Origin: Candidatus Woesebacteria bacterium
GTDB lineage: Bacteria; Patescibacteriota; Microgenomatia; UBA1400; PJMF01
NCBI GenBank assembly: GCA_050123235.1
Contig: JASFHL010000009.1
Coordinates: forward strand, 1-52,479
Direction: 5' to 3'
DNA length: 52,479 nt
Shown here one piece after another: positions 1 through 23,663 of the stretch (position 1 is the stretch's first letter; each line of letters begins with the position of its first letter). The notes under the pieces are model-generated. The model was not told the origin of the DNA. It worked only from the letters and a program-made list of their open reading frames with translations, and searched no databases. The translations under genes were made by a program, and so were the position numbers.

Positions 1-2
1 AA

Positions 3-551
3 AGTTTCCTCAGGATGTAGGATTCCTAAAGTATCTGGTAGCATAAAACGTTTTATTTTTTCATTTTTTAGCCCATTTACTAAAAAAAATAGATAATCAG
101 GAGAATTTTTAATTCCATTGGACCAATCTTCTAAGTAAAGGTTAACTTTCATTTGAAATTGTTTAGCTTTATTAATTGTTTTTTTAATATCATCTAAATG
201 CCGCTGTGGAGTTTTTCTAAGTTGTACAGAAACATGTTTGAGTGAACCTTTACAAAGAAGATTCACAACTCTTCCTCCAGCCTGTTTGATCCATTGAAGT
301 GATTTACCGTCATCAATAAAAGCTAAAATTTCTATTTTTTCTAAATGATTATTTTTTTTAGCCCAATTAGTAATTTTTTTAACAGCTTCAAATTCTCCTT
401 TAGATACTCTGGCAGAAGCCACTTCAATTCGATCGACTAAAACTTCCTCTATTAGCATTTTAGCAATTAATAGTTTGTCTTCATGGTTAAAAGTAACTCC
501 AGCTGTTTGTTCACCATCTCTGAGAGTGGTATCCATAATGCTAATTTTCAT
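3..551 (-). CDS. cimA: (R)-citramalate synthase-like DRE-TIM enzyme (LeuA/CimA family); runs off the left window edge
   Basis: Not in the ORF track; translated by hand from ATG at 551: MKISIMDTTLRDGEQTAGVTF...DRIEVASARVSKGE...YLEDWSNG...MLPDTLGIL. DTTLRDGEQ is the LeuA/CimA motif. EVASARVS and YLEDWSNG resemble Leptospira/Bacteroidetes-type CimA. SD AAAGGA upstream. Confidence 0.75.
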   Translation of the reverse strand, partial: MKISIMDTTLRDGEQTAGVTFNHEDKLLIAKMLIEEVLVDRIEVASARVSKGEFEAVKKITNWAKKNNHLEKIEILAFIDDGKSLQWIKQAGGRVVNLLCKGSLKHVSVQLRKTPQRHLDDIKKTINKAKQFQMKVNLYLEDWSNGIKNSPDYLFFLVNGLKNEKIKRFMLPDTLGILHPEET

Positions 552-567
552 TTTTTCCTTTCTAAAT

Positions 568-595
568 AAAAAAATCTCCCTTAAGGGAGATTTTT
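568..595 (-). terminator. Attenuator terminator upstream of cimA
   Basis: Minus strand AAAAATCTCCC-TTAA-GGGAGATTTTTTT: perfect hairpin ending in a U7 tract, 16 nt before the cimA ATG. Confidence 0.85.
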
Positions 596-616
596 AAACT
601 ACAATATTAAATCCCC

Positions 617-670
617 CTATGTAGAGAGAGTAATAATAATGCTATTGAAAGTTTTTAAACTTTTGTTCAT
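617..670 (-). CDS. Ile-rich attenuation leader peptide MNKSLKTFNSIIITLST
   Basis: ATG(670)..TAG(617) with three tandem ATT codons. Lies between a consensus promoter and an antiterminator/terminator pair. Confidence 0.8.
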   Translation of the reverse strand: MNKSLKTFNSIIITLST

Positions 671-698
671 TTTTGATTTTTATTTTAGATGAGTAGTA

Positions 699-727
699 AT
701 TATATAACTTAAGAGAAATGCTGTCAA
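699..727 (-). promoter_or_regulatory. sigma70 promoter for the leader-cimA transcript
   Basis: Perfect TTGACA-17 nt-TATAAT on the minus strand. Confidence 0.85.
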
Positions 728-745
728 AGAAAATTTTTCTATAAG

Positions 746-1489
746 TTAAACTATCAGTTCATAATTCTGACATTTTTTTACTAATTCCTTAAATACTTGG
801 CTAGTAATTGTTTGATCTTTATCAACCAATTCTTCTTCCGGATTATAGTGAGTCTCCACTACTAAACCATCTGCTCCTGCTGCAATGGCTGACAAAGCTA
901 AATGAGGAACCATATCTCTTCTGCCAGCAGTGTGCGAAGGATCAACAATGACTGGCATTTTGTGATCATGTTTAACTACTAACATAGCATTTAAATCTAA
1001 AGTAAAACGCATTGCATCTGCTCCAGTTCTAATACCTCTTTCACATAAAATAACTTTATCTTTACCGATGTATTCCGCAGCTCCTAACCATTCTTTAACT
1101 GTAGCTATTAAGCCTCGTTTTAAAATGACAGGCCTTGGATCATCTTTCATCCTTTTGAGTAGTTCATAATTTTGCATGTTTCTAGCTCCTACCCATAAAA
1201 TATCAGCAACATCCTCTACAATTCCTATTTGATCTGGAGCTACCATTTCCATTACAACAGGCAAGCCAGTTTTTTCTTTTAATTCTTTGATCCAAGGAAT
1301 GCCTTTTTTTCCAACTCCCTGAAACGAATCAGGTTTGGTTCTTGGTTTCCAAAGTTGAGCACGAATAGCATGAGCTCCTGCTTTTTTAACTTCTTTAGCA
1401 ATACGTAAAATTTGTTCTCTTGAGGCAACAGAGCAAGGCCCACCAATAATTAAAGGTTTATTTTTTAATAGTCTTTTTCTGCTTAGCAT
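746..1489 (-). CDS. aroF: DAHP synthase type I-beta, catalytic barrel only
   Basis: GPCSV, KPRT, GARNMQN, LKRG, CERGIRT, DPSH and GADGL motifs. KPRT rather than KANRS indicates DAH7PS, not KDO8PS. 247 aa, no ACT or chorismate mutase extension. Confidence 0.9.
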   Translation of the reverse strand: MLSRKRLLKNKPLIIGGPCSVASREQILRIAKEVKKAGAHAIRAQLWKPRTKPDSFQGVGKKGIPWIKELKEKTGLPVVMEMVAPDQIGIVEDVADILWVGARNMQNYELLKRMKDDPRPVILKRGLIATVKEWLGAAEYIGKDKVILCERGIRTGADAMRFTLDLNAMLVVKHDHKMPVIVDPSHTAGRRDMVPHLALSAIAAGADGLVVETHYNPEEELVDKDQTITSQVFKELVKKCQNYELIV

Positions 1490-1525
1490 AATGATTTCCT
1501 TTTTTGATTTAATTAATTGAAGTTT

Positions 1526-2452
1526 TTAATTTTTCAAATTTAAATCTTTTAAATTTATTTTTTTAGTACAAGCTTTTTTCATAAATTGATAAATTTCTTT
1601 TTTATAAGGAATAGCTGTACCATTACCTGTTTTTCTACATTGCATGGCAGCTACTAAATTAGCAAAGTTAATAATTTTTTCCTCATTCCATTTGTTCAAA
1701 ACACCAAATCCGTAAGCACCACGGAAAACATCTCCTGCTCCAAGAGTATCAACTACATCGACTTGGTAGGCTGGATAAAAATTAGTTTTTTTGCCGTTAT
1801 AACTCAAACTGCCTAATCCTCCAGCTGTGACAATAATTGTTTTTTGAGCGATTTGTTGTAATTGTTTTAGATTATCCAATTGACTAAGTTTGTTGTTGTA
1901 TTTTTTTAAACTTTCAATTGGAATGATAGGATGTTCTGCTTTTTGGAGCATACTTAATGTCTTGCTTGAAATTTCAGTAGAAGGATCGATTACAATTGGC
2001 GTTGTTATTTTTTTCTTTTTTAAAATTTCTTGAAAAGCGATTGGTTCATGTCTATCAATAATAATTAAATCAATAGTTCTAATTAATGATGAACTAAGGT
2101 TTTTAGTGGGTCTATGTTTAATTCGGTCTTTAATAATTGTGCGCGAACCTGTTTTGCGATTGACTAAGACAGTATTAGTTTTAGTTTTAGCTTGTTGATT
2201 AATAATTAATTTAATATTTTCTTTTTTTAATTTCTTCTTGATGACTTTAGCTGTGTCATCATTGCCTAAAGAACAGATTAAAGTACATTGCACACCTAGT
2301 CGCGCTAATAAAATTAAAGCTGCTGGTACAGGGCCACCAACTGAATAAGAAGTTTGTGAAGCTTGTGTTTTTTCTCCGTCTTTTGGATAGTGCTTGATGA
2401 TATTGCTTTTGTCTAAAACGACTTCACCAATACCAAGTACTTTCATTTTCAT
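1526..2452 (-). CDS. PfkB/ribokinase-family carbohydrate kinase
   Basis: GGPVPAALILLARLG and VVDTLGAGDVFRG signatures. Start moved to ATG 2452 (AGGAGG 10 nt upstream), because the track's 2488 start runs through the attenuator. Confidence 0.88.
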   Translation of the reverse strand: MKMKVLGIGEVVLDKSNIIKHYPKDGEKTQASQTSYSVGGPVPAALILLARLGVQCTLICSLGNDDTAKVIKKKLKKENIKLIINQQAKTKTNTVLVNRKTGSRTIIKDRIKHRPTKNLSSSLIRTIDLIIIDRHEPIAFQEILKKKKITTPIVIDPSTEISSKTLSMLQKAEHPIIPIESLKKYNNKLSQLDNLKQLQQIAQKTIIVTAGGLGSLSYNGKKTNFYPAYQVDVVDTLGAGDVFRGAYGFGVLNKWNEEKIINFANLVAAMQCRKTGNGTAIPYKKEIYQFMKKACTKKINLKDLNLKN

Positions 2453-2455
2453 AAT

Positions 2456-2480
2456 AAAAAAACCTCCTAGTAGGAGGTTT
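2456..2480 (-). terminator. Attenuator terminator that also sequesters the PfkB Shine-Dalgarno
   Basis: Minus strand AAACCTCCT-ACT-AGGAGGTTTTTTT. The 3' arm is the AGGAGG SD. Confidence 0.85.
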
Positions 2481-2506
2481 GTCTGCATTCTGGTTTTATT
2501 TTCTTA

Positions 2507-2581
2507 TTACAACAAAGACCTCCTTTTATTTAGGAAGTAAAAGTAAAAGAAATACCAGTTACTTGTTTTGTATGTATTCAT
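2507..2581 (-). CDS. Aromatic-rich leader peptide MNTYKTSNWYFFYFYFLNKRRSLL
   Basis: ATG(2581)..TAA(2507) with eight consecutive aromatic codons (TGG TAT TTC TTT TAC TTT TAC TTC). Confidence 0.88.
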   Translation of the reverse strand: MNTYKTSNWYFFYFYFLNKRRSLL

Positions 2582-2590
2582 TAAGTATAG

Positions 2591-2619
2591 ATTATAAATA
2601 TGCAATTATACTTTTGCAA
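2591..2619 (-). promoter_or_regulatory. Putative sigma70 promoter for the aromatic leader
   Basis: TTGCAA-17 nt-TATAAT, overlapping the ridA 3' end, 9 nt before the leader ATG. Confidence 0.65.
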
Positions 2620-2980
2620 TAGCCACTGCCTCAATTTCGATCTTAGCTCCTTTTGGTAATTCTGCTACCGCAACAGTAGATCGAGCTGGTTTATGTCCTT
2701 GCAAAAATTTTCCATAAATTTCATTAACAATAGCATAATCATTAACGTTAATTAAAAAAATCGTTGTCTTAATCACATCTTTGACAGTTACTCCAGCAGC
2801 CTTTAAAACATTGGCTAAGTTTTCCAGAGCCTTTTGGCACTGTGCTTCTACTGCTTCATCAACGAGATCCCCATTTGTATCAATGCCAATCTGGCCAGAA
2901 GTAAAAATAAATTTATCTACTTTAATAGCCGGTGAATAAGGACCAACAGCTTTACTATTTTTGGGATTAATAATTTGCAT
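2606..2980 (-). CDS. ridA: RidA-family enamine/imine deaminase
   Basis: GPYSPA, FTSGQI, PARSTV and LPKGAKIEIEA motifs. Confidence 0.9.
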   Translation of the reverse strand: MQIINPKNSKAVGPYSPAIKVDKFIFTSGQIGIDTNGDLVDEAVEAQCQKALENLANVLKAAGVTVKDVIKTTIFLINVNDYAIVNEIYGKFLQGHKPARSTVAVAELPKGAKIEIEAVAIAKV

Positions 2981-2986
2981 ATTTAA

Positions 2987-3340
2987 TTACTTACTGACTT
3001 TATCAACGATTTTCTTGAAAGTCGCCTCATCACTGACAGCTAATTCTGCAAGCATTTTTCTGTTAAGCATGATTTTAGCTTTTTTGAGTTGATTGATAAA
3101 TCTTGAATATTGAAGTTTTTCATCAATTGTTTTTAAAGCAGCATTAATTCTAATAATCCAGAGTTTTCTCATATCTCTTTTTCTCAGTTTTCTACCAATA
3201 TAAGCATATTGCCCAGCATGTAGTACTGCTTCATGGGCTCTCTTAAATAATCTACTATTAGTCCCACGATAACCTTTAGCTAGTTTTAAAATTTTTTTGT
3301 GTTTACGTCGTCTGACGACTCCAGTTTTTGCTCTAGACAT
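2987..3340 (-). CDS. rplT: 50S ribosomal protein L20
   Basis: MSRAKTG..AKGYRG, RKLWIIRINAA, LNRKMLAELA; operon context. Confidence 0.97.
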   Translation of the reverse strand: MSRAKTGVVRRRKHKKILKLAKGYRGTNSRLFKRAHEAVLHAGQYAYIGRKLRKRDMRKLWIIRINAALKTIDEKLQYSRFINQLKKAKIMLNRKMLAELAVSDEATFKKIVDKVSK

Positions 3341-3361
3341 ATTAACCTTCCTTCAGATTTT

Positions 3362-3565
3362 TTAGGCTAAACCCAACATCTTTTTGATTTTTTTAGCCCA
3401 TTTGCCTTTAACTTCAACAGGAATTTTATAATTCCTAATTGCTTTTTTACTTTTCTTTCTTCTAAGGTGTCTCATGTTTTGTTTTCTTCTGAGAACTTTA
3501 CCAGTAGCTGTGATTTTGAATCTCTTAGCTACGCCTTTTCTAGTTTTTTGTTTAAGTTTCTTCAT
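3362..3565 (-). CDS. rpmI: 50S ribosomal protein L35
   Basis: KQKTRKGVAKRFKITATGK; lies between infC and rplT. Confidence 0.95.
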   Translation of the reverse strand: MKKLKQKTRKGVAKRFKITATGKVLRRKQNMRHLRRKKSKKAIRNYKIPVEVKGKWAKKIKKMLGLA

Positions 3566-3569
3566 AGTT

Positions 3570-4112
3570 CTATTTCTTAGGTGCTAGTTGTGAAATTAGC
3601 TTTTTACCAATAATCTTTGCTTCTATTTCAATTTCCGCTATTTCTTGAACAGCTTCAAAAATTCTAGCAAAAACGTCATACGCTAGATTCTTTTTTGTAA
3701 TTTGCCTACCTTTGAGTTCTATACTGATTTTAACTTTATTGCCTTTTTTCAAAAAAGTCTCGATTTTTTTAATTTTAGAATTAAAATCTTGTTCACCAAT
3801 AAAAATTTTAAATCTTAATTCCTTAACTTTTATTTGTTTGCTAGTCTTTCTATTTTTTGCTTGTTTCTGCTTGAGTTGATATTTATATTTTGATAACTCA
3901 ATAATTTTCGCAATGGGTGGTTTAGCTTTAGCAGTAATTAAAACCAAATCTTTTTCACTTGCTTGAGCTTTTTGGATAGCTTCCCTGGTGGGCATAATAC
4001 CCAACATTTCACCCCGCTCATCTAAAACTCTAACTTTTGGGTAACGAATATAAAAATTCGCTACAATTCTTTGTTTTTGATATTTTATGTGTTTTCTTCG
4101 TTTTCTTATCAC
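3570..4112 (-). CDS. infC: Translation initiation factor IF-3
   Basis: VRVLDERGEMLG, DLVLI, PPIAKII, KELRF, FLKKGNKVK. Start uncertain (GTG 4112 or the following ATA). Confidence 0.93.
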   Translation of the reverse strand: MIRKRRKHIKYQKQRIVANFYIRYPKVRVLDERGEMLGIMPTREAIQKAQASEKDLVLITAKAKPPIAKIIELSKYKYQLKQKQAKNRKTSKQIKVKELRFKIFIGEQDFNSKIKKIETFLKKGNKVKISIELKGRQITKKNLAYDVFARIFEAVQEIAEIEIEAKIIGKKLISQLAPKK

Positions 4113-4217
4113 TCAAGTTAATAATTAATAATAGTTTTATCTTCAGAAGAAGAATTATAACATTGATTAATCAATTGTGTAATGGGTATTAGTCAGGTAT
4201 AATGATCGTTTGTTAAA

Positions 4218-4291
4218 GAATCCTTAGCTCAGTTGGCTAGAGCGCTTCGTTGACATCGAAGAGGTCGCTGGTTCAAGTCCAGCAGGGTTCA
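4218..4291 (+). tRNA. tRNA-Val(GAC), CCA not encoded
   Basis: Cloverleaf: acceptor GAATCCT/AGGGTTC, anticodon arm CTTCG-TTGACAT-CGAAG, T loop TTCAAGT. Confidence 0.95.
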
Positions 4292-4308
4292 CAAATAAGA
4301 ACTTTATT

Positions 4309-4965
4309 CTATCCTCCACTATAAGCATTATATCTCTCATGATGTAGAGCGTCATGAGCAGCTTTAGCTTCATTTCCTGCAAAATCTAAACCAATACGTC
4401 TGCCTTTTTTCTTTTTCTTCTTTTTACTTTTTGCATGCATTTGTGTAGCCCAGGTTCGAGCACTTCTAATTTTCTGTCTTAAAAACATGATAAAAGCTCG
4501 TAGTTTCTGGAAGAAGTTAATGTAATATTGTCCATCTTGTCCTGGATCAACAACTTCGGTCATGAGGGTAAGTTCTACTTCTTTGTTAAATTTAGCTACA
4601 TCTTGGGCTAGGAATTTTAATTCATCGCTGAGTTTATTAATTTCATCTTTGACTCGTTTTTGTCTAGCATTATAAATTTCTGTTTGTTCAACAGGATTAA
4701 CTTTTTCATGGAGTTTTTTTCTGAGAGCTTCTTTTTTAGCTTTTTTTTCCGCTTCTTGCTCTTCGTATTTATCTGGTTGACGTGGAGAGAAATTATTATC
4801 TAGAAAGGATGATCCACCTTTTGCTAAGGTTTCTCCTAATAGATCATTAGATTTTTGTTTTTGAGAATATGCAGATTTTTCCCGTTCTGCTAAAGCTTTA
4901 GCAAAAGGATTAGCTTTTGTTTTCTTTTTAGAACTTGTATTTAATTTTTGTCCTAATTGATTCAT
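4309..4965 (-). CDS. DUF5660-like CPR hypothetical protein
   Basis: Coiled coil, then GQYYINFFQKL..IRSARTW and a poly-Lys tract. Family recalled from memory. TTGACA-16-TATAAT upstream (5014-5041). Confidence 0.6.
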   Translation of the reverse strand: MNQLGQKLNTSSKKKTKANPFAKALAEREKSAYSQKQKSNDLLGETLAKGGSSFLDNNFSPRQPDKYEEQEAEKKAKKEALRKKLHEKVNPVEQTEIYNARQKRVKDEINKLSDELKFLAQDVAKFNKEVELTLMTEVVDPGQDGQYYINFFQKLRAFIMFLRQKIRSARTWATQMHAKSKKKKKKKGRRIGLDFAGNEAKAAHDALHHERYNAYSGG

Positions 4966-5044
4966 ACTTATTGCTTAGGGTTTTTTATGTAATGATTATA
5001 TATCTTTTAAGATATTATAGGATGCAAAATGAATTTGTCAATGA

Positions 5045-6004
5045 TTATAATTTAAATAAATGATCCATTGTTTTTTGTCTTTTAACAATATATTTCAAAT
5101 AAGACTGATATGAGGCATTTTTTTTCATTTTCTCCCTCAAGATTTTATCCTGAATTTTTTCTAAATATTTTTTAATATCTTCTTTAGTAGCGCTTATTTT
5201 TTCTTCTAAAGTAATTTTATTTAAAATAAAATCAAGTTGTAATTTGCCTAAAGAACTAGCTGTGAGTTGTTGTGATAGTTGTTCAAAGCTTAATTTTTGT
5301 GATTTAAGATAATCTTCCAGTCTCAATTTCATTCTTGAGAGATTATTAACTAGTTTCTCTAGTTCTCTTTGAGTTTCTTCTTCAACTAATAATTGAGGAA
5401 TGCTAGGCTTAATTTCAGTAATTAGTTCTTTGAAAATGAATTGCAAAATACTGTCTTTTTTTTGAGTGTCAGTCAGTTTTTGAGCTGTTTTAAATTGAGC
5501 TTTACTATCTGTTTTCTTATTGGCTTTCTTGCTTTGTTTTTTTATCTGTGCTTCTGCTTCTTTGATATGCTTTTCTGCCTGTTTTTTAGCTGTTTTGATG
5601 ATTTTTTTAAAATTTTTAAGATCTATCTCAGGTGCTTCAGCGAAATGTGCTTCTATTTTCCAGTCTTCACCAATTTTGATTTGAATTGGCCTAAATTTTG
5701 GCTGGCTCAATGGCTTTTTCTTATCTTTTTTAATAGCGTTGGTATATAAATCAGGTAATAAACTTTGTAGAGTTTTATTGATAAGTTTAGATTGACCAAT
5801 GATTTCTTCAGCAATTTTTTTGGGAACGCGTCCTTTTCTAAAGCCAGCTGTTTTAACATTTTTGGATAATCTTTTCAAAACTCTGTGATATTCCTCGCTT
5901 GCTTTTTTAGCAGGAATAGTAAGAGTGATGATGCTATTTGGAGCAATCAAAGCTTTTTCCTGTTTTTTATCTGCTTTTGTTTTAGTGTTTGTTTTTTTGC
6001 TCAT
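5045..6004 (-). CDS. tig: Trigger factor lacking the central PPIase domain
   Basis: GFRKGRVP ribosome-binding motif and C-terminal helical domain, joined by a Lys-rich linker in place of FKBP. ATG 6004 chosen (TATAAT 7 nt upstream). Confidence 0.85.
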   Translation of the reverse strand: MSKKTNTKTKADKKQEKALIAPNSIITLTIPAKKASEEYHRVLKRLSKNVKTAGFRKGRVPKKIAEEIIGQSKLINKTLQSLLPDLYTNAIKKDKKKPLSQPKFRPIQIKIGEDWKIEAHFAEAPEIDLKNFKKIIKTAKKQAEKHIKEAEAQIKKQSKKANKKTDSKAQFKTAQKLTDTQKKDSILQFIFKELITEIKPSIPQLLVEEETQRELEKLVNNLSRMKLRLEDYLKSQKLSFEQLSQQLTASSLGKLQLDFILNKITLEEKISATKEDIKKYLEKIQDKILREKMKKNASYQSYLKYIVKRQKTMDHLFKL

Positions 6005-21452: not shown

Positions 21453-23663
21453 ATGCTTGAGCATTTAAATTTAATTTTCTATTCTTGGATTCTAATTTTT
21501 TTTTGGCAGGTACTAGCCGCACCTTTTCTGATAGTAACTTTTCGTAAGAAGTTTGTAGATGCTGCTTGGGGTTTTGGCAGAATAGTTAGCTGGCTAGTAC
21601 TGGCTTCAGTTATTTGGTTTCTAGCTCACTTAACTCTAGCTGTTAACACACGATTATTTTTATGGATTCTTTTTGCAGTTTTATCTGTTTTAAGCTATTA
21701 CTTTTTTCGACGACATCGTAGGGAAATTATTGATTTTCTTAAAAAAAGGAAAAAACTTCTAATAATTGAAGAAATAATTTTTCTTTTTGGCTTTTTATTT
21801 TTGACTACTATCAGAAGTTTTAAACCAGATATTCTAGACCTTGAAAAATTCATGGATTTTGGTTTTATCATGTCCTATTTAAAATCATCAACCCTCCCCG
21901 CGATGGATATGTGGTTAGCTGGAGAAAAAATAAATTACTATACTTTTGGTCACTTTTTAGGAGCGATTGCTAGTAATTTTTGGGGTATAGAACCTAGTGT
22001 TTCCTACAATCTACTATTAGCTCTATTGATGGGACTTACCTTGATTGAAAGTTTTAGTCTAATAGTAAATCTAATAGGGCCTTTTTTAGCTAGAAAAAAA
22101 AATCTTAAATTATTAGTTGTTCCTGCTTTAGTAGCAACATTTCTAATTGGTTTTGGAGCCAATACTCATACAATTTGGTATTTTTTGGAACATCACTCTT
22201 TTAAAGCTTATTGGTATCCTGATGCCACTCGCTTTATTGAACGCACCATTCATGAGTTTCCTACTTATAGTTTTGTCGTCAGTGATTTACATGCTCACGT
22301 TTGGAGTTTGCCAATAGTTTTTTTCTTACTGCTAAATATTTATTTCTGGTTGATTAATTTATTAGCTGAATATAAAAAGGAAATTAATTTTAAAGTTAAA
22401 TATTTTTTACCTTCGATAGTTGTTGGTTTTATTTTAGGTTTGATAGTGGCTACTAGTGCCTGGGATACAGCTATTTATTCAATGGTTTTAGGGTTAATAG
22501 GCATTATTTTATTGTTTTTTAATTACAGATTTTTTCTACCTTTAGTTTTTTCAGCTCTTACTATGATCGCTATGCTCTTACTTGCTTCTAGTCCTTGGTG
22601 GTTAAACTTTGTCTCTATTTCAGAAGGGATTAAAATCGCCAAAGAACAGTCACCTCTTTGGCAATTAATTGTTTTATGGATTGGGCATGTGACTATGAGT
22701 GCTGTGGCAGCAATTTTTATTAGCAAGAGATTATTTAAAGGCAAACAGCTTAGAAATAAAGCCAACCATTTATTAGTTTTAGCATTGATTATCACAGCAT
22801 GGTTTTTATTGATAATTCCAGAATTAATCTATGTGAAAGACATCTATCCCAATCATCCTAGGGCCAATACAATGTTTAAACTAACTTTTCAGAGCATTAC
22901 TTTAATGAATTTGAGTATTGCCTATTTAATAGCTTTGTTTAGTCCTGATTTTTTTGCAGAAAAGCGTTCAGTACTGATGAAACTCCTGATGAAAAAGAGA
23001 CGACTCAGCAGAAAAAAAAGGCAAATAGTTATTTCAAGAGCTTTACTAAAAACTTGTTTTTTAATTTTTATTTTTGCTGTAGGAATTTATCCATTTTTTG
23101 CTTATAGAGACTATTATGGTATTAGATTAAAGATTAGTAGAAGTTTGGATCAAAGAACTTGGATTTTAAAAAAGCAGACAAAAGGTGAATATCTTTTCGG
23201 AGATAAAGATCATCTAGTAATTAATATTAAGGCTGATTATAAAGGACTAGATGGTGCTCAATGGTTGAAAGAGCAATACCCTGATGATTATGCAGCAATT
23301 AAATGGATGAATGAAAATGTTAAAGGTCGTCCGGTGATTATAGAAGCAGTTGGAGAAAGTTACACAAGTTTTGATAGAGTTTCTACTTTTACTGGCTTAC
23401 CAACTGTTTTAGGATGGAGAGTACATGAATGGTTATGGCGAGGTGGTTTTGACATTCCTTCCCAAAGGACTGAAGAAGTTAGAAAGGTTTATGAAGTCCC
23501 ATTGTCGCTAGAGTCTAGAAAGATTTTAAATAAATATAAGGTAGAATATATTTTCGTAGGTGATAAAGAAAAAGAAGCATATAAAAACATTGATTTAATA
23601 GGCTTAAAAGAATTAGGAAATATAGTTTTTAGAAAAGGAAACACTTTAATTATTAAGAGATAA
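21453..23663 (+). CDS. DUF2298 / YYY-type membrane protein (GT-C-like)
   Basis: EKFMDFGF, INYYTFGH, IHEFPTYSF..SDLHAH, RANTMFK, TGLPTVLGW..HEWLWR. Confidence 0.8.
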   Translation: MLEHLNLIFYSWILIFFWQVLAAPFLIVTFRKKFVDAAWGFGRIVSWLVLASVIWFLAHLTLAVNTRLFLWILFAVLSVLSYYFFRRHRREIIDFLKKRKKLLIIEEIIFLFGFLFLTTIRSFKPDILDLEKFMDFGFIMSYLKSSTLPAMDMWLAGEKINYYTFGHFLGAIASNFWGIEPSVSYNLLLALLMGLTLIESFSLIVNLIGPFLARKKNLKLLVVPALVATFLIGFGANTHTIWYFLEHHSFKAYWYPDATRFIERTIHEFPTYSFVVSDLHAHVWSLPIVFFLLLNIYFWLINLLAEYKKEINFKVKYFLPSIVVGFILGLIVATSAWDTAIYSMVLGLIGIILLFFNYRFFLPLVFSALTMIAMLLLASSPWWLNFVSISEGIKIAKEQSPLWQLIVLWIGHVTMSAVAAIFISKRLFKGKQLRNKANHLLVLALIITAWFLLIIPELIYVKDIYPNHPRANTMFKLTFQSITLMNLSIAYLIALFSPDFFAEKRSVLMKLLMKKRRLSRKKRQIVISRALLKTCFLIFIFAVGIYPFFAYRDYYGIRLKISRSLDQRTWILKKQTKGEYLFGDKDHLVINIKADYKGLDGAQWLKEQYPDDYAAIKWMNENVKGRPVIIEAVGESYTSFDRVSTFTGLPTVLGWRVHEWLWRGGFDIPSQRTEEVRKVYEVPLSLESRKILNKYKVEYIFVGDKEKEAYKNIDLIGLKELGNIVFRKGNTLIIKR

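Follow-up and report, generated by a model that had tools for sequence, protein, structure and literature searches.

A predicted leader-peptide attenuator with a run of aromatic codons ahead of a pfkB and DAHP synthase gene pair in Candidatus Woesebacteria

In the attenuator of the E. coli tryptophan operon, trpL (Yanofsky 1981), a ribosome stalled on segment 1 of the leader RNA frees segment 2 for the formation of an antiterminator. The same stalled-ribosome mechanism is predicted here for a locus in the genome of a Candidatus Woesebacteria bacterium (assembly GCA_050123235.1, contig JASFHL010000009.1, positions 1 to 52,479; this whole stretch of 52,479 nucleotides (nt) is referred to as the window), where a short open reading frame (ORF) rich in aromatic codons precedes a terminator, a pfkB-family sugar kinase gene and a gene for a type I-beta 3-deoxy-D-arabino-heptulosonate 7-phosphate (DAHP) synthase. 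The element occupies positions 2453-2619, from a -35 hexamer through to the end of the U-tract, and all of its parts, as well as both controlled genes, are on the minus strand. It departs from trpL in that the stop codon of the leader follows segment 2, so that a terminating ribosome would cover this segment directly, in that the mRNA is probably leaderless, and in that the terminator's 3' arm also serves as a Shine-Dalgarno (SD) sequence. With E. coli pheL, represented by the Rfam family Phe_leader, it shares a Phe-rich leader, the 1:2, 2:3 and 3:4 arrangement of pairings and a terminator that is rich in GC and followed by a U-tract; however, pheL controls pheA, which catalyses a Phe-specific step, through Phe codons only, whereas the window leader has codons for three amino acids and precedes the common first-step enzyme. 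Phe_leader (RF01859) was the best non-tRNA match of this region in Rfam, scoring 43.5 bits (E value 5.8e-5), which is below the gathering cut-off of 55. No leader family reached the Rfam gathering threshold in 17 related loci, no T-box was matched at E values of up to 10 in window positions 1-6000 or 2400-2650, and no uORFC-13-1-type family was returned by the Rfam scans at E values of up to 10.

Two further described systems are positioned ahead of DAHP synthase genes. In Corynebacterium glutamicum, the aroR leader, with the residues Phe-Tyr-Phe, lies before aroF and acts through ribosome-stalling attenuation (Neshat et al. 2014, as cited in the available text of PMC11802643; also PMC4046766); according to the former, it responds to Phe but not to Tyr. 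As at the window locus, a mixed aromatic leader peptide precedes a DAHP synthase gene, although aroR has three aromatic codons rather than eight including Trp, and comes from another phylum. The features present only in the window, as judged against what these texts say of aroR, are the pfkB gene in first position, the SD within the terminator and a genome in which no downstream shikimate enzymes were found. The second system is uORFC-13-1 (Brewer et al. 2021, PMC8632094), an upstream ORF (uORF) with Phe codons found before a terminator and aroF in Acholeplasma and in unidentified environmental sequences, for which the available text gives 24 representatives, with 'at least one phenylalanine' arising from the U run. 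Compared by description, uORFC-13-1 and the window locus both have a uORF with Phe codons directly ahead of a terminator and promoter elements near the uORF start; the available text on uORFC-13-1 mentions no mixture with Tyr or Trp, and in the window pfkB separates the terminator from the DAHP synthase gene. An earlier note on this DNA, made by reading the sequence, had set the leader apart from the classical pheL and trpL leaders, which sense one amino acid; on these accounts aromatic uORF attenuators ahead of aroF are already published for Corynebacterium and Acholeplasma. Its suggestion that none is described in the candidate phyla radiation (CPR) agrees with our literature searches, in which no attenuation paper was found for Patescibacteria or CPR; the 'leader peptide' matches listed for CPR look unrelated, judging by title and abstract opening. 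Amongst comparative papers on attenuation, leaders of aro or DAHP synthase genes are not mentioned in PMC2965389 and appear only in the references of PMC1262725. The mechanism is already known, and the locus adds to a widespread leader family that has no Rfam match at threshold.

The features of the locus are listed in Table 1. Those from which the earlier note had argued are present: a 24 amino acid (aa) ORF, seen both in the sequence and in the ORF list, with eight consecutive aromatic codons, one for Trp, three for Tyr and four for Phe, and a U7-tailed terminator that hides the AGGAGG SD of the next gene. This SD (2468-2463) falls within the 3' arm of the terminator, 10 nt ahead of the pfkB ATG at 2452, and the terminator itself ends 1 nt ahead of that ATG. 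The terminator scan returned it as a hairpin at 2480..2460, with nine pairs, a loop of three and the tail TTTTATTATG, and also listed a seven-pair hairpin at 2538..2518 formed by ACTTCCT and AGGAGGT. The end of the -10 hexamer of the promoter-like site is 9 nt from the leader ATG, and hence little or no untranslated sequence would precede the leader ORF in the mRNA. The genes upstream are rplT and RidA, the latter ending at 2606.

Table 1. Positions of the attenuator, the genes behind it and other features of the same genome. Positions are those of the window unless a homologous locus (L number) or a contig of the window's genome (C number) is given.
Feature	Position	Strand	Details
Promoter-like site	2619-2591	-	TTGCAA 2619-2614, 17 nt spacer, TATAAT 2596-2591; 10/12 consensus matches
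Leader ORF	2581-2507	-	ATG 2581-2579, TAA 2509-2507; 24 codons and stop; peptide MNTYKTSNWYFFYFYFLNKRRSLL
Control codons	2557-2534	-	TGG TAT TTC TTT TAC TTT TAC TTC (WYFFYFYF)
Segment 1	2538-2532	-	ACTTCCT; overlaps the last aromatic codons; partner is segment 2
Segment 2	2524-2508	-	AGGAGGT (2524-2518) and CTTTGTTGTA; antiterminator 5' strand, in the leader ORF just ahead of the stop
Segment 3	2487-2472	-	Antiterminator 3' strand; 2480-2472 is the terminator 5' arm
Intrinsic terminator	2480-2453	-	Stem AAACCTCCT/AGGAGGTTT, loop ACT, U7 at 2462-2456
First controlled gene, pfkB/ribokinase-family sugar kinase	2452-1526	-	308 aa; PF00294, 107 bits
Second controlled gene, type I-beta DAHP synthase	1489-746	-	247 aa; TIGR01361, 291.3 bits (cut-off 267.75)
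Ile attenuator	727-552	-	Promoter 727-699, leader MNKSLKTFNSIIITLST 670-617, hairpin 629-612, terminator 595-570
Phe attenuator	L114 (C15) 656-798		Leader MTNHKTNNNFFFFFFNSSLKEVVGI 656-733 (F6), terminator ~757-781
Leu attenuator	L115 (C5:77800-82000) 236-470		Leader MQINKFKNNQLLLILTIP 291-347, tandem terminator-like hairpins ~368-391 and ~401-423
tRNA gene	4218-4291	+	Rfam tRNA, 67.5 bits

Three alternative pairings can be folded from this RNA. Segment 2 pairs with segment 1 at -7.2 kcal/mol; the antiterminator, in which ACCTCCT (2478-2472) pairs with AGGAGGT (2524-2518) and an additional UUGU:ACAA stretch is formed, has an energy of -13.1 kcal/mol; and the terminator has one of -11.4 kcal/mol. 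Both partners that had been suggested for AGGAGGT, namely ACTTCCT and ACCTCCT, are thereby borne out. The 3' strand of the antiterminator, ACAAACCTCCT (2482-2472), pairs with segment 2 and the bases after it, and all nine positions of the terminator's 5' arm are paired in the window RNA that is made before the 3' arm exists. In silico, the 5' strand of the antiterminator falls inside the leader ORF, ahead of the stop, so that a ribosome reaching the stop codon would cover segment 2. The whole leader folds more stably than shuffled sequences do, with a z score of -3.16.

These features are very probably those of a ribosome-mediated transcription attenuator of the trpL and pheL kind. Transcription would probably start a few bases ahead of the leader ATG. 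When charged tRNA-Phe and tRNA-Tyr, and perhaps tRNA-Trp, are plentiful, the ribosome would reach the TAA and cover segment 2 (AGGAGGUCUUUGU), leaving segment 3 to pair with segment 4; the terminator would then fold and end the transcript within the U-tract, around 2456. A stall within the aromatic run, above all at one of its final five codons (F12 to F16), would instead hold the ribosome on segment 1, and segment 2, being free, would pair with segment 3 once this had been made; no terminator would then form, the SD in segment 4 would be single-stranded, the pfkB and DAHP synthase genes would be transcribed, and pfkB could be translated. Should RNA polymerase read through the terminator hairpin, the latter would still hide the SD and might act as a second lock. 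The proposal of a leader-peptide attenuator with three alternative pairings and an SD inside the terminator is thus supported, its design being kept in 12 homologues.

These homologues, together with the window, make up a near family of 13 leaders, five of them taken from genome records and seven from metagenomes. Loci are given L numbers below, genomes G numbers (G000 being that of the window), contigs of the latter C numbers, and the leader model is designated R1. A query with the DAHP synthase returned 80 loci, amongst which the closest with upstream sequence were L010, L011 and L012 (63-64% identity) and L014 (62%, from a record titled Candidatus Daviesbacteria). All four have a homologous leader (e.g. 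MNTNQVNYFSFYFYFATRREVS), followed in the same order by a GGGAGGT segment, a CCTCC[CT] segment and a terminator with a U-tract; the start codon is 9-10 nt past GGAGG in three of the four, and the long ORF of L012 has its first ATG about 20 nt past the U-tract. The pfkB protein, used as a query, led to L110 (59% identity), in which the leader MLLQTNSFQAFFYFYYFSPSCGLGGKAYTEN and a terminator stand ahead of pfkB. Scanning metagenomes for the motif gave at least 120 stretches, and of the 80 loci scored with R1 (E ≤0.001), seven matched at 54.7-78.8 bits: L184, L122, L119, L191, L141, L160 and L164. The leader is followed by a DAHP_synth_1 ORF in L119, L191, L141 and L160, and by an ORF beginning with an IIAGPCS-type motif in L184; no DAHP_synth_1 ORF was found downstream of the leader in L122, and the contig of L164 ends early. 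In L160 (7503-8410) and L191 (5435-6325), the leader and terminator lie ahead of a lone, divergent gene of the DAHP_synth_1 family (78-87 bits), and the genes that follow it are unrelated (PolX-like, LemA). Within the window itself, R1 also gave a weak match at 21681-21785 on the plus strand (25.3 bits, E value 0.34).

The peptides of the near family follow the pattern MN..Q.NYF[WSRTF]FYF, and the aromatic codon run, the loss of which would have spoken against the earlier note, is hence part of a design common to all 12 homologues. In 11 of these, the RNA preceding the terminator's 3' arm pairs six to nine positions of the 9-10 nt 5' arm with the GGAGG segment in the leader ORF; in the twelfth, L110, seven of nine arm positions pair likewise, in a separate fold. 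Antiterminator energies range from -12.4 to -24.4 kcal/mol (11 leaders) and terminator energies from -10.9 to -14.7 kcal/mol (all 12). The sequence at the centre of the antiterminator varies among loci, with pairing kept in each, and the closing pair of the terminator is T-A, C-G or T.G across the sequences. These comparisons were made on per-sequence folds, as the model-based alignment shifts the row of the window by one column. A -10-like hexamer lies 6-13 nt ahead of the leader ATG in all six leaders inspected by eye, with no SD visible; the promoter-like site of the window is supported by this shared position, and we infer leaderless or near-leaderless translation.

Beyond the near family, aromatic leaders were sought at 98 DAHP synthase loci with at least 300 nt of upstream sequence (80 genome loci and 21 from a sample of the phylum, minus three that were too short), counting ORFs with at least six of eight residues aromatic, on the sense strand and no more than 1 kb upstream, and terminators within 160 nt. 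An aromatic small ORF was found upstream of 25 of the 98, in 22 cases with a terminator. The corresponding controls gave two ORFs upstream on the antisense strand, none downstream on the sense strand and one downstream on the antisense strand, never with a terminator. A looser threshold of five residues in eight, applied to the whole flank, detected ORFs in 55 of 102 loci and ORFs with terminators in 37, the window being included in these counts. DAHP synthase was present at E ≤1e-40 in 22 of the 401 genomes in the phylum sample, including that of the window, and 11 of the other 21 had an aromatic ORF upstream, seven of them with a terminator. The record titles of the DAHP synthase loci include Clostridia, Anaerolineales, Calditrichia, Treponema and Patescibacteria/Parcubacteria, amongst others. 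In two loci from records titled Woesearchaeota (L018, 2388-2468, and L019, 2256-2336), a small aromatic ORF (…AYSFYYFSY) lies some 1.5 kb ahead of the DAHP synthase gene, and the scan found no terminator-like hairpin there.

The earlier note had regarded the leader as an OR gate with three inputs. Tyr and Phe codons occur together in all 13 near-family leaders, and sensing of these two amino acids is likely; assuming a ribosome footprint of around 12 nt on the 3' side of the A site, a ribosome halted at any of codons 12-16 (F Y F Y F) would sit over segment 1, and segment 2 would be left free. For Trp the evidence is divided. Its codons are found in just five of the 13 (the window, L010, L011, L184 and L164), and the window leader opens its run with Trp, such that a ribosome with the Trp codon in its A site would reach only to about 2545, leaving segment 1 free to trap segment 2. 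The energies for such a stall are ambiguous, that of the read-through fold being -20.5 kcal/mol against approximately -18.8 for the combination of 1:2 and 3:4 pairings (the sum of -7.2 and -11.6), and for aroR, the one tested analogue, a response to Phe but not to Tyr is described (PMC11802643). However, Trp is frequent in the terminator-associated leaders of small genomes (the window, L010, L011, L044, L094, L098, L099, L102 and L184; it is also present in L164, the contig of which ends ahead of the terminator), and in four of the five near-family leaders that have it, Trp is in the middle of the run (YFWF), where a stall would cover segment 1. Whether Trp is sensed could therefore go either way, and a sensor of Phe and Tyr alone with an incidental Trp codon, which would alter the inputs of the proposed attenuator but not the attenuator itself, is evenly balanced against the three-input gate.

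The DAHP synthase gene that the earlier note had placed downstream is there, but as the second gene, with the pfkB kinase coming first. Searches of NCBIfam and PDB for a specific function of this kinase gave only generic ribokinase-family matches: the ribokinase model scored 113.6 bits, below its cut-off of 299.65, and the best solved relative was sulfofructose kinase (E value 2.6e-20). The DAHP synthase consists of the catalytic core only, covering positions 92-329 of the 338-position model PRK08673, without a regulatory domain. It aligns end to end with the DAHP synthase chains 1vs1 (276 residues) and 1zco (262 residues), and keeps the GPCS, KPRT and DPSH motifs, which we presume to have their usual roles in the enzyme.

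A number of observations weigh against the attenuator interpretation or its physiological purpose. The leader ORF lacks an SD of its own; its promoter is a match to the consensus, and the region as a whole shows no excess of promoter-like sites, 18 having been found where 22.1 were expected. Covariation, which the earlier note had proposed looking for alongside the aromatic leaders, is weak in the core stems, with double changes in two of 14 pairs, because GGAGG and CCTCC are fixed by their role as SD; this figure comes from a MAFFT and RNAalifold alignment of five leaders, the middle of which is poorly registered. With segment 1 masked and segment 2 free, the terminator state is slightly preferred at equilibrium (-15.8 against -13.1 kcal/mol), and therefore the switch must be co-transcriptional and kinetic, as in classical attenuators. 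The lack of a Tyr response in aroR, as given in the text cited above, also counts here. Finally, searches of the window's genome, which is 98.5% complete, gave no chorismate synthase, shikimate dehydrogenase (Shikimate_dh_N), shikimate kinase, chorismate mutase (CM_2) or dehydroquinase of type I or II; the claim that the leader controls entry to the shikimate pathway is accordingly not upheld, and since no canonical shikimate enzymes were found beyond DAHP synthase, the selective reason for aromatic control is unclear. The only gene of the EPSP family is MurA, and the only one of the DHQ_synthase family is an AroB-like gene on C16. The latter was considered as a partner for the DAHP synthase and set aside as a general explanation: it scores 250.9 against the aroB cut-off of 305, it sits in a glycosylation-type cluster, and DHQ_synthase was not matched in two other genomes with the same gene pair, G457 and G458. 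The AroB-like protein also matches a model of AroB-related sugar phosphate cyclases, and the surrounding genes (L008, 11-5346) encode glycerate-kinase-like, short-chain dehydrogenase/reductase (SDR), sugar-phosphate nucleotidyltransferase, VOC/glyoxalase-fold and GT4 glycosyltransferase proteins, a set that we take to resemble those of cyclitol-sugar pathways.

The genome contains three further predicted attenuators (Table 1). As the window is the start of contig C9, and C15 begins with the rest of the cimA-like gene truncated in the window, the two contigs abut, which gives the order RidA, aromatic leader, pfkB, DAHP synthase, Ile leader, CimA, Phe leader, prephenate dehydratase and pheS. The Ile attenuator has a perfect TTGACA-17-TATAAT promoter and a terminator with a U-tract, and is followed by a gene (551-3), incomplete because the contig ends there, for an (R)-citramalate synthase of the Leptospira type; the Phe leader is followed by a prephenate dehydratase gene without an ACT domain (L114, 799-1536), with pheS further on; and behind the Leu leader are leuA, encoding a protein of 392 aa with no C-terminal regulatory domain, leuC, leuD and leuB. 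The leader codons are III ahead of citramalate synthase, F6 ahead of prephenate dehydratase and LLLIL ahead of leuA, so that in each of the four leaders the codon content matches the product of the gene behind. The pure F6 leader serves a Phe-specific enzyme, and the mixed leader serves the common first enzyme. On the basis of family-model matches, the four controlled enzymes all consist of their catalytic parts only, the customary allosteric domains being absent: the DAHP synthase has 247 aa as against 351-359 aa with the ACT domain in L010-L014, LeuA (L115, 470-1648) matches positions 3-383 of a 516-position model, CimA (continuing at L114, 19-645) matches positions 7-388 of one with 514 positions, and prephenate dehydratase matches positions 8-185 of one with 284.

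The apparent loss of the pathway raises the alternative that the attenuator is a relic, inherited with the DAHP synthase gene from an ancestor whose aro operon was complete; it would still terminate or read through, but by now without adaptive meaning. Apart from the missing enzymes, it is favoured by the context of the closest leaders (L010-L014), which precede full operons of DAHP synthase with ACT, aroB, aroA-aroK and aroE; amongst the genomes with a leader ahead of DAHP synthase, aroB, aroA/K and aroE, chorismate synthase was found in G459, G460 and G461, Shikimate_dh_N in G459 and G460 (the two tested) and DHQ synthase in G459. However, the ORF, the four segments, the U-tract and the SD are all intact in the window, the DAHP synthase core has kept both its full extent relative to the solved enzymes and its motifs, and the prephenate dehydratase gene of the same genome retains its own intact Phe leader. 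Moreover, the arrangement of leader and pfkB is kept in L110 at 59% protein identity. The pair of pfkB and DAHP synthase genes is found there (L110, 2995-6877, in G457), where pfkB and a divergent DAHP-synthase-like gene are followed in the same operon by genes for chorismate mutase, an aminotransferase and prephenate dehydratase, and again in L009 (39-2943, in G458), where an aminotransferase gene follows; neither of these genomes, for which completeness is not given, gave matches to chorismate synthase, Shikimate_dh_N or DHQ_synthase. We therefore regard a relic as improbable.

Somewhat less probable again is that the ORF encodes a functional hydrophobic micropeptide, or that the leader acts mainly on translation, through coupling or re-initiation, instead of on termination. 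In favour of this, conservation at the peptide level is seen in the N-terminal MN..Q.N and in the aromatic core; against it, the residues conserved towards the C-terminus (PP.G, RREV) fall where the RNA has its pairing segments, ACCCCC and GGGAGG. Similarly, the SD of the next gene within the hairpin would suit translational control, but the stop codon of the leader is 23-29 nt ahead of the terminator in six leaders, a distance too great for coupling across the hairpin to the next start, and the stem is followed by a U7 tract.

Runs of at least eight aromatic codons occur four times in the six frames of the 1.134 Mb genome, where 0.11 would be expected from trinucleotide frequencies with independent and identically distributed codons; aromatic codons fill 12.45% of six-frame codon positions, two of the three other long runs overlap stop-free frames of at least 120 aa, and the third is on C8. 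What counts is that the run occurs together with terminator, antiterminator and DAHP synthase gene, and conservation settles the question of chance. Hence, although RidA has no terminator of its own ahead of the leader and AT-rich DNA is a ready source of Phe and Tyr codons (p = 0.1245 per codon, whatever the frame), the idea that the hairpin merely terminates rplT-RidA and that the ORF arose by chance is scarcely credible, being contradicted by the expected frequency of such a run, by controls without a single ORF and terminator together, and by the conservation of leaders with terminators behind unrelated genes (transaldolase in L010, transketolase in L011, opposite-strand ORFs in L012 and L014, DUF5660 in L110).

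As the mechanism of the predicted attenuator is a textbook one, a single such locus is no surprise. The large family of leaders before type I-beta DAHP synthase genes could improve the annotation of aro operons, and a reduced, probably symbiotic bacterium is seen to regulate at least four sets of amino acid genes by what appears to be classical attenuation, the enzymes being without allosteric domains. The part most worth following is the orphan module of pfkB and DAHP synthase under intact aromatic control: an intact aromatic sensor and a DAHP synthase without a visible pathway, in three genomes, constitute a concrete and biochemically testable gap in aromatic metabolism. If the control is adaptive, aromatic amino acids would be made by an undescribed route or through the exchange of intermediates with a partner cell. 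We put forward only tentatively, as a possibility less probable than its negation, that pfkB and the bare DAHP synthase, the sole shikimate-type enzyme left, serve such a route or such an exchange under an attenuator sensing aromatic tRNAs; if so, all of the feedback control once exerted through the allosteric domains that DAHP synthase, LeuA, CimA and prephenate dehydratase have lost would have passed to leader-peptide attenuators.

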